Source: Patescibacteria group bacterium (GTDB lineage Bacteria; Patescibacteriota; Microgenomatia; Levybacterales; UBA12049). From it: a DNA stretch of 64,000 nucleotides. Of this stretch, positions 8,171 to 26,825 are shown piece after piece. Position 1 is the stretch's first letter; the number at the start of each line of letters is the position of its first letter. The translations under genes were made by a program, and so were the position numbers. The notes under the pieces were generated by a model. That model ran no database searches, was not told where the DNA came from, and worked only from the letters and a program-made list of their open reading frames with translations. The stretch lies in the NCBI GenBank assembly GCA_038063415.1, contig JBBTVD010000006.1, forward strand, positions 137,948 through 201,947, written 5' to 3'.

Positions 8171-9127
8171 TTACACTTCTTTTCTCCAGTAATCAAGAAT
8201 TGCTTTAAGGCTCTCTTCAAGTGAAATTTCAGGCTTCCAACCAGTCAGATTATGCATCTTACTTGTATCTGCACGGATTTCAGGGACATCACTTGGTCGC
8301 AATTTTGTTGCATCTACTTCAGGATGAATAGCGACCGATGATAAAGAAAGTAAGATATCAAGCACTTCTTGTATTGAATGAGAGACACCTGAACCAATAT
8401 TGTAGACCTCTCCCTCTTTACCTCTTTCGAGGAGTAGGACATATGCTCGTACCATATCGCGAACATCAGTAAAGTCTCGACGAGCCTCTAGGTTGCCAAT
8501 ATGGATGATTGGTTTTTGTTTACCTTTTTCTATATGTGCAATTTGTCTAGCGAAGTCTGAGGTGACAAATCCTGTTTTTTGACGAGGGCCAATATGGTTA
8601 AATGGCCGTACACGGATAAGTGGTAATTGATATGAAAGGTAATACTGTAGTGCTATATAATCCTGGGTTATCTTTGATACAGCATAAGGATTTACTGGAC
8701 GAAATGGCGTTGTTTCTTTTATAGGAATATCTTGCGGATCAAGTCTTCCGTACGTCTCAGCTGAACCGACAATCAGTACTCGTGTCGATACGAACGATTG
8801 CTCACGAAGGACATCAAGAAGATATATTTGTGAATCAATATTTGCATGAAGGGTTTTAATTGGATCCTCAAAACTCTGTGGGACATTTGATTGGGCAGCT
8901 AAGTGATAGACATAATCAGGATGACTCTGTGCAATGGCAACTCGAACTGCTTGTTTATCGGTAAAATCTGCTTTAATGAAATGAATGTTGTCTTTGACTG
9001 GTGAACGATCAAGACTTCCCTCAGAAGAATAGGTTCCGTAGATTTCTGCTTCACCTTTTTGCAACAAGTATTCACACAGATATCCACCAACAAAGCCAGA
9101 GGCCCCAGTAATTAATATGCTTTTCAT
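8171..9127 (-). CDS. rmd: GDP-4-dehydro-6-deoxy-D-mannose reductase (GDP-D-rhamnose synthase, Rmd-type SDR)
   Basis: ITGASGFVGGYL...SAETYG...NPYAVSK...RPFNHIGPRQKTGFVTSDFARQIA...DFTDVRD closely parallels Pseudomonas Rmd. It sits next to gmd. Confidence 0.7.
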   Translation of the reverse strand: MKSILITGASGFVGGYLCEYLLQKGEAEIYGTYSSEGSLDRSPVKDNIHFIKADFTDKQAVRVAIAQSHPDYVYHLAAQSNVPQSFEDPIKTLHANIDSQIYLLDVLREQSFVSTRVLIVGSAETYGRLDPQDIPIKETTPFRPVNPYAVSKITQDYIALQYYLSYQLPLIRVRPFNHIGPRQKTGFVTSDFARQIAHIEKGKQKPIIHIGNLEARRDFTDVRDMVRAYVLLLERGKEGEVYNIGSGVSHSIQEVLDILLSLSSVAIHPEVDATKLRPSDVPEIRADTSKMHNLTGWKPEISLEESLKAILDYWRKEV

Positions 9128-10410
9128 CGTCCAACACCAACGTAGGTAAATCCTAATCCTTTGACTGTTTCAGGATCGTAGATATTTCGTCCATCAATAA
9201 TGGTTGGTTTCTTAATTAGTTTTTTTACCTTTTGCAGATCAATCTGCTTAAATTCATTCCATTCGGTGACTATTACCAGAATATCTGCCCCCTCGACACA
9301 GGTATAAGGATCATCAACAAAAGTGACCTTATCTTTAAAGACTGCTCGTGTCTTTGGAATACCTTCAGGATCATACGCTGTTACCTTAAATCCTTTTTGC
9401 AGGAGGTCTTGAATTAAATATGTTGCAGGTGCTTCTCGGATATCATCAGTATTTGGCTTGAAGCTCAACCCCCAAACTGCAACATTCTTCCCTTTTGTAT
9501 TGTCCAAAATTTTCTGTAACACATTTTCTCGAGCTTGAGTGTTTACACTATCAACGCCATCAAGAAGTGTCGTATCAATCCCAAGCGAATGACCTATTTG
9601 AATGAGGGCTTTCACATCCTTTGGAAAGCATGAGCCACCATACCCAATACCTGGGTTCATAAAAACACGCCCAATCCGTTTATCAAGGCCAACAGCATCA
9701 AGAACCTCCTCAATGTTGGCACCTGTTTTTTCACTATAAAATGAAATTAAATTCGCAAAAGAAATTTTTGTGGAAAGAATTGCATTTGCCGTATATTTAA
9801 TCAATTCTGCTGATGCCAAATTGGTAATAACACGAGGCGCATCAATTCCTTCGTGAAGTGTCACCATACTATCAATTGCTCTTTTTGAGTCTGAACCAAT
9901 AACTACTCTATCAGGGTGGAGTGTATTGGCAAGGGCAGTTCCCTGGCTTAAGAATTCAGGACAGGAAGCAATCGCAAATGCAGCGTCTTTTGGCTTTACG
10001 GAATTAAGAATTTCTGCTACCTTTTCATTTGTACCGATCGTTACGGTACTCTTACAAGAAACAACAGTAAAGCCTTTTTTCAAATGTTTACCAATTTTTT
10101 CGGCGACAGTAAATACAGCAGAGAGATCAGCAGCACCTGATGTCTGGGGTGGAGTACCGACAGCAATAAAGACCACATCAGATTCACTAACTGCTTTCTC
10201 ATATTCTGTGGTAAAGTTCATTCGCTTTGCCTTAAGATTCTTTTTGAGTAGCTCTTCAAGCCCTGGCTCAAAGATTATTGGATCACCCTTTTTGAGGCGT
10301 TCAATTTTTTCTGGAGTATGTCCGATGACATGTACCGTATTGCCCAAATCAGCAAAGACGCTTGCAGTAACCAGTCCTACGTATCCATGGCCGACAAAAG
10401 TAATCGTCAT
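9124..10410 (-). CDS. ugd: UDP-glucose 6-dehydrogenase
   Basis: MTITFVGHGYVGLVTA N-terminal NAD motif, catalytic Cys region GGSCFPKDV, and a UDP-Glc/GDP-Man dehydrogenase family architecture. It is adjacent to uxs. Confidence 0.8.
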   Translation of the reverse strand: MTITFVGHGYVGLVTASVFADLGNTVHVIGHTPEKIERLKKGDPIIFEPGLEELLKKNLKAKRMNFTTEYEKAVSESDVVFIAVGTPPQTSGAADLSAVFTVAEKIGKHLKKGFTVVSCKSTVTIGTNEKVAEILNSVKPKDAAFAIASCPEFLSQGTALANTLHPDRVVIGSDSKRAIDSMVTLHEGIDAPRVITNLASAELIKYTANAILSTKISFANLISFYSEKTGANIEEVLDAVGLDKRIGRVFMNPGIGYGGSCFPKDVKALIQIGHSLGIDTTLLDGVDSVNTQARENVLQKILDNTKGKNVAVWGLSFKPNTDDIREAPATYLIQDLLQKGFKVTAYDPEGIPKTRAVFKDKVTFVDDPYTCVEGADILVIVTEWNEFKQIDLQKVKKLIKKPTIIDGRNIYDPETVKGLGFTYVGVGR

Positions 10411-15784: not shown

Positions 15785-15849
15785 TGTCATCCTGAGCGAG
15801 CGAAGGATCTTGGCTAAAAAAGATTCTTCGGCAACGCCTCAGAATGACA
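15785..15849. repeat. 65-bp palindromic MITE-like element (TGTCATCCTGAG ... CTCAGAATGACA termini) between tsaC and the GIY-YIG gene
   Basis: 12-bp terminal inverted repeats with one mismatch, plus an internal GAAGGATCTT...AAGATTCTTC sub-palindrome. The right terminus encodes the last codons and stop of the GIY-YIG gene. Confidence 0.6.
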
Positions 15850-16123
15850 AAGAGAGATCCTTCCATTCAGAATTTCTAGATTCGATTAGAGAAACTTTTT
15901 TTATTCTTATCCACCCTTTCATTTTCTTTTCACTTGCTATTGCTTCATCTATTAATTGAAATTCTTCAAAGTATACTAACTTAGATACATTATATTTCTT
16001 TGTAAATCCTTCCACCAACTTATTTTTATGCTCATAAACTCTCCTTCTTAAATCATTCGTTACTCCAATATACAGAATCTTATTATTCCAGTTAGTAAGA
16101 ATATAAACCCAATATGATCTCAT
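15839..16123 (-). CDS. GIY-YIG nuclease family protein (UPF0213/YhbQ-like, stand-alone 94 aa)
   Basis: YWVYILTNWNNKILYIGVTNDLRRRVYEHK is the GIY-YIG motif (GIY...YIG...R...E). Confidence 0.75.
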   Translation of the reverse strand: MRSYWVYILTNWNNKILYIGVTNDLRRRVYEHKNKLVEGFTKKYNVSKLVYFEEFQLIDEAIASEKKMKGWIRIKKVSLIESRNSEWKDLSLSF

Positions 16124-17826: not shown

Positions 17827-17896
17827 ATGATTTAAGTTTAGTATATTTTACTTGGGAGAGTAAAGAGGCTTATTTACTCATATTACACAATGCTCC

Positions 17897-17966
17897 GTCA
17901 TTCTGGCTTGTCCAGAATCCGTCATATGATCCTGGATGCGCTCGTACCTTGCTTACCAGGATGACG
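17897..17966. repeat. palindromic element copy (GTCATTCTGG-CTTGT-CCAGAATC hairpin plus CGTCATATGATCCTGG...CCAGGATGACG inverted repeat)
   Basis: Same TGTCATyC termini family as at 15785. The 23-nt hairpin is identical to 23917-23939. Confidence 0.55.
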
Positions 17967-23162: not shown

Positions 23163-23860
23163 AGATTCCAGGCGTTTTTACGACAATTAAGATTACTCAT
23201 GGACAACCGATCTTTCTTGAGAAACATCAAGCAAGACTTATCGCTCATGCCAAACAAGCAGGTTTCCAAATCCATACGACTGCTATAACACAAAAAATAG
23301 TAACATGGTTGCAAGATCATCCGCTAAAAGATTGTGTACTCAAAATAAGTATTTTAGGAGAGTATAAGGAACCAGAAATTCTTTTTGCTACCCGAGAGTT
23401 ACCACAAACCTCAGGTTCAATTCGCCTCATTAGTGTTCCTGATAATCGCGATGTGTCAAAAGTTATCAAAAGTATTGATCGGACAATGTATGAGCAAGCA
23501 AAGCAAATGGCGCAAGCAAAAGGAGCTGATGATGCGATCTTTGAAGAAGATGGATACCTGATCGAATCAACGATCTGTAATCTTTTTTCTCTCAATAAGA
23601 AAGGTGAAATTATTACTCCACCAATTGCTGGTAAAGGGTTAGCAGGAGTTATGCGGGCAAGCATTATGGAAAATTTTCCGGTTCGTGAAGAACCTATCCC
23701 AAAGACAACAAACGGACCATTGGTTTTGACAAATAGTTTACGGGTACAAAAAGCAAGTTCGCTTGATGGAAGAATACTCGCTGACGGAGAAGTATTGTTA
23801 GAAAAACTAAAAATAACAATAAATAAAGCCGAATTTAAATATCTGTCATCCCGTACTTGA
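23159..23860 (+). CDS. pabC: aminodeoxychorismate lyase (class IV PLP aminotransferase fold)
   Basis: MKIPGVFTT...[12 protein letters not shown]...GVMR is a PabC-like pattern. The ATG at 23159 overlaps the folE stop. The track ORF extension 23036-23158 was rejected. The stop codon lies within the terminal repeat of a palindromic element. Confidence 0.6.
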
Positions 23861-23939
23861 TACGGAATCCATGGATTCCCGCTTTTGCTGGAATGACAAT
23901 TCTAAGTTTTTTATTCGTCATTCTGGCTTGTCCAGAATC
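23844..23939. repeat. composite palindromic element (TGTCATCCCG...GGAATGACA with internal 16-bp perfect palindrome GGAATCCATGGATTCC, followed by GTCATTCTGGCTTGTCCAGAATC hairpin)
   Basis: Termini are inverted repeats with one mismatch. The second hairpin is identical to 17897-17919. The element occupies the entire pabC-pabB intergenic region. Confidence 0.55.
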
Positions 23940-23950
23940 TTTTATTTAAA

Positions 23951-25375
23951 ATGCACAATAAAAAATTACCAATCTGGGTCGATCCCAAAGCAGTCTTTAC
24001 TGATCTTTTTGCCGCGGCTCCGGCAGCCTTTTGGCTTGATACAAGTCTGCCCAACGATGAAAAGAGATTCTCCTATATGGGCCTACCCAAAGAAATTATC
24101 TCCTACGACCTTCAAACTAATACAATAACCATACAGAAAGATTCTCACATCACAAAAATAACCCAAGATATCTTTACTTATCTCAATAGGAAGCTACAAC
24201 AACAGGCTTTTGAAGACAAAACACTTCCTTTTCCCTTTATCGGAGGATACGTCGGTTACTTCGGTTATGAATTAAAAGCACTCTGCGGAGTGAAAAACAC
24301 CTACCAGTCTCCTTATCCTGATAGTGTATGGTTCAAGGTTGAGCAATATATTGTCTTTGACCATCAAGAAAAAGAGGTTTACCTTGCTTGTCTAACAAAA
24401 AAAAAGCAACTTGCAGACAAATGGTTCCAGGACATACAAAAAAATTTATTGTCATCCCGAGTACCCCATAGAAAGTCGAGGAATCTCACACCGCAGAGAA
24501 ACTTGTTTGCAACAGACCCCTCCACTCGTTCCTCGGTCGGGATGACATTTTCCCGTGAACAACAACAATATCTTAAGGACATACAAACAGCTAAAAAATA
24601 TCTTAACAAAGGAGAAAGCTATCAAATTTGTCTTACCAATACCCTTACCAAAAAAGTAACAATTGACCCCCTTCTTCTTTATCAAACGCTGAGAAAAAGT
24701 AACCCTGCTCCGTATGCTGCGTATCTTCGCTATAATGATCTCACCGTTCTCTGCTCTTCTCCCGAACAGTTTCTCAAAATTGATGCAGGTGGAACAGTCA
24801 CAACCAAACCAATCAAAGGAACAATAGCTCGTGGTAATACCTTGCAAGAAGATATCTTGCTTAAAAAACAACTCGCAGAAAGCAAAAAGGACTGGTCAGA
24901 GAACGCTATGATTATTGACTTACTACGAAATGATCTGGGGAAAGTATGTACGTTCGGTTCGGTAAAAGTAACAAAACCAATGGCAATAGAGACGTATCAA
25001 ACAGTACATCAACTTGTTTCAACGGTACAGGGCAAATTACATAAGGATACTTCAGTTATTGATTGCATCAAAGCCTGCTTTCCCGGCGGATCAATGACCG
25101 GAGCGCCAAAAACACGAACAATGGAAATTATTGAAAAATTAGAAAAGCAAGCACGAGGCATCTATTCTGGAGCACTTGGATTTCTTAGCTACAATAAAAC
25201 AGCGTCACTGAACATCGTTATCAGGACGATGGTCATGCAAAAAGATGCGGTAAGTATTGGCGCTGGTGGAGCCATTTTGATTGATTCAGATCCAGAGAAA
25301 GAATATGAAGAAATGCTACTCAAAACAACAGCTTTACAAAACGCGATTCAAAATTCTTTAGAGAGTGAGGAATAA
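23951..25375 (+). CDS. pabB: aminodeoxychorismate synthase component I
   Basis: Chorismate-binding domain blocks SYQICLTN, PEQFLKI, TKPIKGT, DLLRNDLG and FPGGSMTGAPK. It carries an in-frame ~33-aa insert at residues ~167-200, encoded by a palindromic element. Confidence 0.8.
   Translation: MHNKKLPIWVDPKAVFTDLFAAAPAAFWLDTSLPNDEKRFSYMGLPKEIISYDLQTNTITIQKDSHITKITQDIFTYLNRKLQQQAFEDKTLPFPFIGGYVGYFGYELKALCGVKNTYQSPYPDSVWFKVEQYIVFDHQEKEVYLACLTKKKQLADKWFQDIQKNLLSSRVPHRKSRNLTPQRNLFATDPSTRSSVGMTFSREQQQYLKDIQTAKKYLNKGESYQICLTNTLTKKVTIDPLLLYQTLRKSNPAPYAAYLRYNDLTVLCSSPEQFLKIDAGGTVTTKPIKGTIARGNTLQEDILLKKQLAESKKDWSENAMIIDLLRNDLGKVCTFGSVKVTKPMAIETYQTVHQLVSTVQGKLHKDTSVIDCIKACFPGGSMTGAPKTRTMEIIEKLEKQARGIYSGALGFLSYNKTASLNIVIRTMVMQKDAVSIGAGGAILIDSDPEKEYEEMLLKTTALQNAIQNSLESEE
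24450..24547. repeat. 98-bp palindromic MITE-like element inserted in-frame inside pabB (perfect 11-bp terminal inverted repeats TGTCATCCCGA / TCGGGATGACA)
   Basis: The termini are exact reverse complements. It belongs to the same terminus family as the elements at 15785 and 23844. The pabB reading frame stays open through it. Confidence 0.6.
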
Positions 25376-25469
25376 ATTTTTTCGCAGTGATCAATAGTGA
25401 AAAAATGATTCGGTAAAGATCTATAAAAGTTACTGCACGTGGAGCACAAGAAAAAATTTCATTCCGAAC
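25365..25469 (+). repeat. copy 1 of a ~100-bp direct repeat (GTGAGGAATAAATTTTTCGCAnTGATCAATAGnGAAAA ... CGTGGAnCAnAAGAAAAAATTTCATTCCGAAC), spanning the pabB stop and the folK upstream region
   Basis: The 5' ~40 nt and 3' ~35 nt are near-identical to copy 2 at 25969-26069, and the centre is divergent. It contains the pabB stop codon. Confidence 0.6.
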
Positions 25470-25514
25470 GACAACGCTAATGACAAAAAGCATCTAAGTC
25501 CCTATAATACCACC

Positions 25515-25979
25515 ATGCACACAATCTATCTCGCTCTTGGATCCAATGTCGGAAAAAAAGCAACATTTCTTACCCAAGCAATTGACAAGCTAAAAAAACA
25601 ACTGCAAAACGTGACGCTAGCAGATTTCTATACAACCCAACCAATGTATGTGGAAGATCAAGAAGAATTTTTAAATACAGTGATGCGGGCGGAGACATCT
25701 CTCTCTCCTGAATCACTCCTTACCTTTGTTAAAGGTCTGGAAAAAGAAATCGGAAGAAAAGAACGATTTCGGAATGGTCCCCGTGAGATTGACATCGACA
25801 TTCTTTTTTATAATGATGTGATTATGCACACAAACTTATTGCAAATTCCTCACCCTCGGATACAGGAACGAAACTTTGTTCTTCGACCTTTTATGGATAT
25901 TGCTCCAGAGTTTATGCATCCAGTGCTAAAAAAAACAATAAAAGAGATTTACAAAAAATTAAATATGCGTGAGGAATAA
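25515..25979 (+). CDS. folK: 2-amino-4-hydroxy-6-hydroxymethyldihydropteridine pyrophosphokinase
   Basis: IYLALGSNVG...REIDIDILFY...RPF is the HPPK pattern. Confidence 0.8.
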   Translation: MHTIYLALGSNVGKKATFLTQAIDKLKKQLQNVTLADFYTTQPMYVEDQEEFLNTVMRAETSLSPESLLTFVKGLEKEIGRKERFRNGPREIDIDILFYNDVIMHTNLLQIPHPRIQERNFVLRPFMDIAPEFMHPVLKKTIKEIYKKLNMREE

Positions 25980-26069
25980 ATTTTTCGCAATGATCAATAG
26001 CGAAAAGAATGGTAGTATGAGTAGTAAAGCATCTACGCGTGGATCATAAGAAAAAATTTCATTCCGAAC
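25969..26069 (+). repeat. copy 2 of the ~100-bp direct repeat, spanning the folK stop and the upstream region of the CofE-like gene
   Basis: See copy 1. It contains the folK stop codon (MREE* versus pabB ESEE*). Confidence 0.6.
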
Positions 26070-26084
26070 AGAATCCTAACGACG

Positions 26085-26825
26085 ATGATTGTAAAACCAT
26101 ACAAAACACATAAAATAACACCAAACGAAAATTTGTTTGAGATTCTCGATCGCTATTTGCCAAAAATTGAGGAAGGCAGTATCGTCGCAATTGCCTCAAA
26201 AATTGTCGGTATTTGTGAAGGGAGAGTGAGCAAAAAAGAATCACAAGAACAAAAGGACGAATTTATCAAACAAGAAGCGGAGTACTACTTACCAGAAAAA
26301 CATATGGAACTCCTACTGACGATTAATCACAATACCCTCGTCGTAAATGCAGGTATCGACGAATCAAATAGCAATGGCTTGCTTTCTCTCTGGCCTAACG
26401 ATCCACAACAAAGTGCCAACGTTATTCGCGAATATCTTAGCAAAAAATATAACATACAACGGATTGGCGTTATCCTAACTGACAGCAAAATAACACCACT
26501 TCGTTGGGGAGTTACCGGCTACATGCTAACACATAGTGGCTTTTTAGCATTAAAAAATTATATTGGCAAACAAGATATCTTTGGACAAACTATGCACGTC
26601 GAGCAAGCAAGCATTGCCGATTCTTTGGCAACGGCTGCAGTAGCTGTTACCGGTGAAGGTGATGAACAACAACCATTGGCAGTAATAACTGATGTTCCTT
26701 TTGTGGAGTTCCAACAACGAAATCCTACACACGAAGAATTGGAAGCACTCAAGATAACTCTTGAAGATGATGTCTATGCACCACTCCTCAAAGCAGTCAT
26801 CTGGCAAAAAGGGAAACAAAAATAG
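26085..26825 (+). CDS. CofE-like (F420-0:gamma-glutamyl ligase family, COG1478) protein; candidate FolC2-type dihydrofolate synthase/folylpolyglutamate ligase
   Basis: 246 aa with the CofE-like layout (IASKIVGICEGR, NAGIDESN, GVILTDSK) in a folate operon. Established knowledge: CofE homologs (FolC2) substitute for FolC in some bacteria. The functional assignment here is inference. Confidence 0.45.
   Translation: MIVKPYKTHKITPNENLFEILDRYLPKIEEGSIVAIASKIVGICEGRVSKKESQEQKDEFIKQEAEYYLPEKHMELLLTINHNTLVVNAGIDESNSNGLLSLWPNDPQQSANVIREYLSKKYNIQRIGVILTDSKITPLRWGVTGYMLTHSGFLALKNYIGKQDIFGQTMHVEQASIADSLATAAVAVTGEGDEQQPLAVITDVPFVEFQQRNPTHEELEALKITLEDDVYAPLLKAVIWQKGKQK

Follow-up and report, generated by a model that had tools for sequence, protein, structure and literature searches.

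A REP-type palindrome probably translated within the interdomain linker of PabB in a Patescibacteria group bacterium

Doublets of repetitive extragenic palindromic (REP) sequences that carry a GTAG tag and are mobilized by Y1 transposases form the REPIN/RAYT system. Another class of REPs carries the tag CGTC, with TGTC and CCTC accepted as variants; the stem of 8-9 bp starts A-T and encloses a loop of 4-5 nt, and most members are head-to-head dimers with spacers of 20-100 bp, which have no dedicated transposase and leave no target-site duplication (Di Nocera, De Gregorio & Rocco 2013, BMC Genomics 14:522; PMC3733652). These CGTC REPs are found mostly at gene 3' ends and in some cases within open reading frames (ORFs), where dimers encode 20-30 amino acids (aa); they have been proposed to act as RNA elements, and they include RPE-4 and RPE-6 of the Rickettsia palindromic elements (RPEs) (PMC3733652). 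In the passage that PMC10969869 gives to them, RPEs are in-frame palindromic repeats in Rickettsia genes (Ogata et al. 2000 Science 290:347; 2002 Genome Res 12:808). Here we analyse a 98-bp palindromic element inside pabB, the gene for aminodeoxychorismate synthase component I, in a 64-kb stretch of contig JBBTVD010000006.1 from a Patescibacteria group bacterium (GCA_038063415.1); this whole stretch is called the window below. We judge, with a probability of about 0.8, that the unit is a TGTC/CGTC-tagged REP-type palindrome lying in the variable linker of PabB and read through as part of one 474-aa polypeptide.

The element lies at positions 24450-24547, exactly where the sequence-only reading had placed it, and its 11-nt ends, TGTCATCCCGA and TCGGGATGACA, are 100% complementary with 76 nt between them. 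A TGTC tag stands at both outer ends (24450-24453, and 24547-24544 on the - strand), and after the tag both arms read ATCCCGA, beginning with AT. The tags point outwards from two arms of ~35 nt each, which enclose a centre of ~25 nt. GC content is 52% in the element against ~38% in its surroundings, where values run at ~32-42%. A 108-nt stretch that includes it was predicted to fold as RNA at -32.2 kcal/mol (z = -3.5), a value matched by none of 200 shuffles. Within the window the terminus, written as TGTCATYCYG, occurs 5 times where 0.49 occurrences are expected, a count reached in none of 100 shuffles. The bases flanking the pabB site, T and T, are uninformative on target-site duplication.

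The pabB frame stays open across the element, as had been noted from the sequence, and covers it from the last 2 nt of codon 167 to codon 199. The encoded peptide is (L)SSRVPHRKSRNLTPQRNLFATDPSTRSSVGMT; codon 200, an F that had been counted with the peptide, belongs to the flank, while the rest of the peptide is indeed element-coded. Only one of the three + strand frames is open through the element, and it is the one used (two of six frames are open overall); the gene would therefore be read through as a single polypeptide. An exact look-up returned the 474-aa protein as NCBI MEK7571021.1, annotated as intact on a 380-kb contig of a metagenome-assembled genome (MAG). Pfam matches to PabB comprise Anth_synt_I_N at residues 9-145 (E = 8e-20) and Chorismate_bind at residues 204-458 (E = 3e-91), and the element codons fall between the two, which agrees with the proposed place between the N-terminal domain and the chorismate-binding core.

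The same termini recur in many bacteria. We scanned one genome per species for the pattern TGTCATCCCGA-N66-86-TCGGGATGACA and recovered at least 120 loci (L002-L121; the count is a lower bound), against ~1 expected by chance for 22 fixed bases. Acidobacteriota, Gemmatimonadota, Bacteroidota, Proteobacteria (Alpha- and Gamma-), Chloroflexota, Verrucomicrobiota and Planctomycetota are among the phyla of the loci listed. Their common plan consists of TGTCATCCCGAGCG-n-CGAGGGATCT, a centre that varies and is often a palindrome, and AGATCCCTCG-n-CGCTCGGGATGACA. An inner module, GAGGRRYC, was present at offsets 16-30 in 188 of 238 family arms. It occurs 11 times in the window on both strands; two of these occurrences are in the pabB arms, at offsets 28 and 25, and the combined chance of finding it at the right offset in both is roughly 2e-6. 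An arm profile built from the family loci gave three matches in the window, namely both pabB arms and a unit at 15785 (E = 1e-3, 1.1e-3 and 0.017), with scores that derive in part from the 11-mer used to select the loci. In its interior, the pabB element differs from the GC-rich copies found in other phyla. To judge from its termini, architecture and inner modules, the pabB element is a member of this cross-phylum repeat family.

The sequence-only reading had named the element a miniature inverted-repeat transposable element (MITE). We drop that name: target-site duplication was absent in 124 family copies, where identical flanking 1-mers (21/124), 2-mers (8/124) and 3-mers (1/124) were at or below chance, and the ends fit CGTC-tagged REP dimers. 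Family flanks often prolong the palindrome, and family lengths are evenly spread over the three residues mod 3. Individual units span 88-108 bp; nested or partial extra termini were seen in L012, L023, L036 and L093, and several copies per locus in L022, L064 and L071. A full-text literature search for the terminal sequences (GTCATCCCGAG and variants) returned unrelated primer matches only.

We then compared the protein with its homologues. The stretch from W158 to Y207, both invariant, is hypervariable in alignments of 26 and of 65 homologues. If counted from W158 up to the second residue after Y207, this linker measures 52 aa here against 37-45 aa in most of the 65 homologues, and its excess over element-free homologues is only ~9-13 aa. 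All 68 columns that are invariant in the 65 homologues are kept, including SPE, PIKGT and GGSMTGAPK, as are most near-invariant residues. The best solved relative of PabB is 8hx6 (E = 5e-100). AlphaFold2, run with the 65-sequence alignment, gave a mean predicted local distance difference test (pLDDT) score of 91.8 and a predicted template modelling (pTM) score of 0.91. Values of pLDDT below 50 were limited to residues 173-179 and 181-188, inside the element-coded stretch. In the model, helix 152-169 extends into the first element codons and is followed by a short strand (199-200) and by helix 204-219.

The last element codons, V196-G-M198-T, align with a native strand of alternating hydrophobic residues, h-x-F-x, ahead of L-x-R-x-x-x-Q-Y-L. 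The most similar element at the level of protein sequence is that of homologue P0002, which reads LSSR...SSVGMT and is still followed by the native strand SITFFIAR. An element-free control, L161, is 63% identical to our protein outside the linker; its linker DNA has a GC content of 36%, no YGTCAT tag and no inverted repeat of ≥7 bp. On these alignments, the segment is not native conserved PabB sequence. The idea of a tolerant linker is thus upheld by the hypervariable stretch, the retained invariant residues and a model in which only the insert is disordered. The proposed insertion of ~33 aa holds in that 33 codons are element-derived; it fails as a measure of growth, since the linker gained only ~9-13 aa and V-G-M-T takes the place of strand residues.

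We picture these events as follows. A non-autonomous palindromic repeat, made of two inverted ~35-nt arms (TGTC-AT.., inner GAGGRRYC) around a ~25-nt centre, would have landed in the hypervariable pabB linker in the sole + strand frame without stops. Codons 167-199 would then specify a mostly disordered surface loop, rich in R, S, T and P, between helix 152-169 and helix 204-219, the latter being the first helix of the chorismate-binding domain, and V-G-M-T would replace the N-terminal half of the native h-x-F-x-L strand. The model makes translation as a floppy surface loop the most likely fate of the element. Neither excision nor splicing would be required. Selection would filter for the permissive linker, and the pabB copy may persist because an insertion elsewhere would destroy the function of the enzyme. 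Arrival by insertion or by replacement, translation and a working enzyme are what we infer.

Several observations weigh against this account. The length of 98 bp is not divisible by 3, and the linker is short of ~20 native residues, so the event was not a clean insertion; comparison with the homologues suggests a loss of these residues and a strand now made up in part by element codons. The window has 3 perfect inverted repeats of ≥11 bp within 150 nt, where first-order Markov resamples average 4.5, and the 11-bp inverted repeat taken alone has no significance. The single pabB arms have no canonical stem of 8-9 bp with a loop of 4-5 nt (z = -0.88 and +1.20), and the gap from terminus to inner module is 13-14 nt in both rather than a loop of 4-5 nt; this copy is accordingly either degenerate or a variant. 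A second full-length copy is absent from the window, where blastn-short found the self match only. The element peptide, searched as a 43-aa query, shares too few words with any protein in a 5.8-billion-protein collection, so that no full-length sibling was seen in coding sequence. With the shared 11-mer removed, an nhmmer profile of the family, which is a diffuse model, did not score the pabB arms significantly (E = 30 and 220).

The linkers of orthologous PabB proteins point to the same site. At the DNA level, other palindromic elements or their remnants were found in the linkers of L122, L123, L157, L160, L125, L158 and L159 (Table 1). Most of these loci were chosen for long or palindrome-like linkers, which biases the frequency upward, and a metagenome scan for PabB relatives returned two close loci only, L124 (the same contig as L123) and L125. 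GTCAT tags in orthologous linkers stand 21-37 nt past the W codon and occupy all three frames, which speaks for separate events or the overwriting of an older element. The element-carrying orthologues are otherwise intact. In a rough neighbour-joining tree of PabB without the linker, the window protein groups with the element carriers P0001, P0002 and P0003; its shape is star-like, and it does not tell independent insertions from a single ancestral insertion that was replaced later. By these comparisons, the PabB interdomain linker is a recurrent permissive site.

A wider reading, which we offer tentatively and hold to have less than an even chance, is that TGTC/CGTC REPs and other small palindromes repeatedly colonize or overwrite the PabB linker in the Candidate Phyla Radiation (CPR), in at least eight lineages and three frames. 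Within the folate operon, the same repeats would drive genes to split or fuse; they would also contribute stop codons, and element codons would be recruited as structural residues.

Two of the orthologues carry further palindromes. In L158, a palindromic family (GGAAGGGCTCCCG.C.GCGCGCA ...) occurs twice, at 1703-1825 and 2288-2467; one copy fuses pabC to pabB as a single ORF, and the other lies in the PabB linker. The L158 PabB is apparently broken before its C terminus, and the next gene comprises Chorismate_bind and HPPK. In L123, the fused PabB-FolK protein (P0003) ends at 9840-9878 in ..QLVFVIPAKAGI, the peptide that another palindromic repeat (GTCATTCC.GC type) typically encodes, and its stop is probably also element-derived.

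The read-through reading was weighed against five alternatives. In the first, the palindrome is kept as a nucleic-acid signal, such as an mRNA stabilizer, a processing hairpin or a protein-binding REP site, and its translation is incidental. This is compatible with read-through, and we consider it unlikely: the perfect 11-bp termini have been retained despite decayed arms, REPs have been proposed as RNA elements and are found mostly at gene 3' ends, and pabC and a GIY-YIG ORF of the window each end in a tagged unit, but nothing in the sequence demands such a role and an element-free orthologue exists. The differences in family, position and frame among orthologous elements are better explained by neutral tolerance.

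A second possibility, that pabB is inactivated or decaying and its open frame fortuitous, would accommodate the replacement of ~20 native linker residues, half a conserved strand included, as well as the reduced metabolism of Patescibacteria. It is made very improbable by the full 474-aa ORF, the retention of 68 of 68 invariant residues and the confident AlphaFold model outside the insert. The complete and syntenic series folP-folB-folE-pabC-pabB-folK and the intact element-carrying orthologues tell against it as well.

Were the segment instead a native, lineage-specific PabB linker and the inverted repeat coincidental, the ordinary frequency of 11-bp inverted repeats in the window, the similar linker length of the solved homologue 8hx6 and the want of a second full-length copy would all be expected. 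We find this highly improbable, because the termini are identical to those of a pan-phylum family, whose inner module also stands at the right offset in each arm. GC content jumps at the element, five other sites in the window have the tag, and different tagged palindromes occupy the same place in orthologues.

In the fourth alternative, the element would be an intron, an intein or the site of a translational hop, and thus be lost or skipped in the RNA or the protein; the sequence-only reading had likewise considered a self-excising or RNA-level element. Its strong hairpin speaks for such behaviour, as does an in-frame ATG in the right terminus that one gene caller used as a start, on a gapped scaffold only. 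This scaffold, L001, belongs to an independent ENA groundwater assembly (ERZ1292660, Hainich H14, 22-kb contig) that contains the identical element. Its N10 gap at ~8832-8841 replaces 18 nt (window 24372-24389) ~60 nt upstream of the element and shifts the frame, and pabB was called there as two genes of 170 aa and 277 aa. The broken pabB implied by the 277-aa product (P0007, which starts at the ATG inside the right terminus) was rejected as an artefact of this gap. The open ORF needs no removal; there is no Rfam match, either at gathering thresholds in the whole window or at E ≤ 1 in 24250-24750; with 98 nt (33 aa), the element is much smaller than a group I or II intron or an intein (at least ~130 aa); and the junctions, L-S-S ... 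M-T followed by F, are without the intein Cys/Ser...His-Asn pattern. Removal or bypass is on this evidence extremely unlikely, and we set the earlier suggestion aside. Equally hard to credit is an assembly chimera, in which repeat reads of another organism were joined into the contig: the termini are common to many soil and groundwater phyla and the ENA scaffold has its gap close by, but the sequence is identical in the two assemblies, the join is exactly in frame on both sides, and the interior does not resemble the high-GC copies of other phyla.

Translation of a REP-type palindrome within PabB remains the preferred reading, and the window holds five more YGTC-tagged units, two of which provide stop codons to genes. 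The heterodimer at 23844-23898 supplies the last five codons and the stop of pabC (..KY, then LSSRT and the stop). The dimer at 15785-15849 provides the stop codon of a 94-aa GIY-YIG ORF (15839-16123, - strand); it also lies within the first 30 codons that the ORF finder assigned to a Sua5/TsaC gene, whose true start is probably M31, which would leave the dimer just upstream. The monomers at 23916 and 17896 share a 24-mer, CGTCATTCTGGCTTGTCCAGAATC, composed of CGTC, ATTCTGG, CTTGT, CCAGAAT and C, with a 7-bp stem and a 5-nt loop.

Table 1 Palindromic units in the window and in orthologous PabB linkers (positions in the window unless a linker is named).
Feature	Position	Strand	Details
pabB, intact ORF hosting the element	23951-25375	+	474 aa; MEK7571021.1
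98-bp palindromic element	24450-24547		TGTC-tagged REP-type arms, head-to-head; in frame within pabB
Left terminus	24450-24460	+	TGTCATCCCGA; TGTC tag, then stem starting AT
Right terminus	24537-24547	-	TCGGGATGACA; - strand reads TGTCATCCCGA, + strand encodes V-G-M-T of PabB
Left-arm inner module	24478-24485	+	GAGGAATC; offset 28 from terminus
Right-arm inner module	24515-24522	-	GAGGGGTC; offset 25 from terminus
TGTC-tagged head-to-head heterodimer	23844-23898		TGTC ATCCCGTA CTTGA TACGGAAT .. ATTCCCGC TTTT GCTGGAAT GACA
Canonical CGTC-tagged REP monomer	23916-23939	+	just upstream of pabB start codon; z = -6.0
Identical CGTC monomer copy	17896-17919	+	intergenic between LTD and PcsB-like genes; z ~ -6
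CGTC-tagged head-to-head unit, adjacent to the preceding	17920-17966		CGTCATATGATCCTGG ... CCAGGATGACG; intergenic
TGTC-tagged head-to-head dimer	15785-15849		TGTCATCCTGAG ... CTCAGAATGACA
66-nt canonical heterodimer	L122 linker		TGTC ATCCCGAA TTTAT TTCGGGAT CTT .. AAG ATGCTGAA ACAAG TTCAGCAT GACA
81-nt unit	L123 linker		GTCATTGCGAG...CTCGCAATGAC
L123-type unit	L157 linker		one mismatch
Right half only	L160 linker
Solitary terminus	L125 linker (40 aa)		GTCATCCTGAG; chance ~3e-5
Two other palindromic families	L158 and L159 linkers

The genes around pabB are arranged in the order folP, folB, folE, pabC, pabB, folK and an F420-ligase-like gene, in synteny with related metagenomic loci. The last of these (26085-26825) is annotated as coenzyme F420-0:L-glutamate ligase (PF01996) and is a conserved member of the folate cluster here and in related Patescibacteria loci, which suggests a folate-related rather than an F420-related role. 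In the orthologous loci L122, L123, L157 and L161, pabB and folK are fused into one gene. Here a direct repeat of ~120 nt, 79% identical between its copies, lies 3' of both pabB (25360-25490) and folK (25963-26090) and contains the last codons and stop of each (..GTGAGGAATAA, that is, ..EE and the stop); the window holds no further copy. Given the fusions in the orthologous loci, this repeat may have split a pabB-folK fusion here.

These findings suggest that in-frame 'coding palindromes' are not confined to Rickettsia and occur also in the CPR, another lineage of reduced genomes. For annotation, such repeats may make gene callers split, truncate or extend genes. Repeated targeting of one linker would amount to a natural experiment on linker turnover and on the sites at which an enzyme tolerates foreign sequence. 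What mobilizes CGTC-type REPs becomes a sharper question now that the same 11-nt termini are seen in at least seven phyla. CPR genomes are tiny and have almost no intergenic space, and if repeated colonization of the linker proves true, reduced genomes would in general turn over linkers by way of coding palindromes, which have been described as unique to Rickettsia. Also implied would be a repeat family shared across phyla, with the same 11-nt ends throughout and some mobilizing machinery.

The case is less unusual than the sequence-only reading supposed, for intragenic CGTC REP dimers and Rickettsia RPEs are already documented. What is new here is the Patescibacteria host, the fact that one enzyme linker has been used repeatedly in orthologues, to judge from their DNA, and a strand into which element codons have apparently been recruited. 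A literature search on palindromic elements in Patescibacteria and the CPR found nothing relevant.

Compared with the described systems, the pabB element resembles MITEs in the strict sense (Correia/NEMIS, Nezha) in being short and non-autonomous, with terminal inverted repeats and an intragenic site such as MITEs occasionally occupy. It differs in that its family has neither target-site duplication nor a parent insertion sequence with matching inverted repeats, and in that the family flanks often extend the palindrome. With REPIN/RAYT the element shares two inverted REP-like arms in one long hairpin, and its family likewise shows no target-site duplication, but the tag is TGTC rather than GTAG; no RAYT gene was identified, although no systematic search for one was made. 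RPEs, like the pabB element, are palindromic repeats of ~100-150 bp that lie in frame within housekeeping genes of a reduced genome, and in both the insert is considered compatible with the fold of the host protein; the pabB element is likewise in frame in an intact protein. RPEs belong to another phylum, however, and are multi-copy with a conserved peptide, whereas the pabB copy has no detectable full-length sibling, and the link to RPEs is made through the shared CGTC-type tag reported in PMC3733652. CGTC REPs are the closest match. Unlike them, the pabB arms are without the canonical stem-loop, their half-stems being separated by 13-14 nt, a spacing shared with the interrupted-stem TGTCATCCCGAGCG..CGAGGGATCT type of many phyla, and Patescibacteria are not among the five phyla listed in PMC3733652. 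Like them, the element has the TGTC tag, an AT right after it in each arm, the head-to-head dimer form and an intragenic place; its family is free of target-site duplication, units in the window sit at gene 3' ends, and canonical forms occur as the monomers at 23916 and 17896 and as the unit in the L122 linker.

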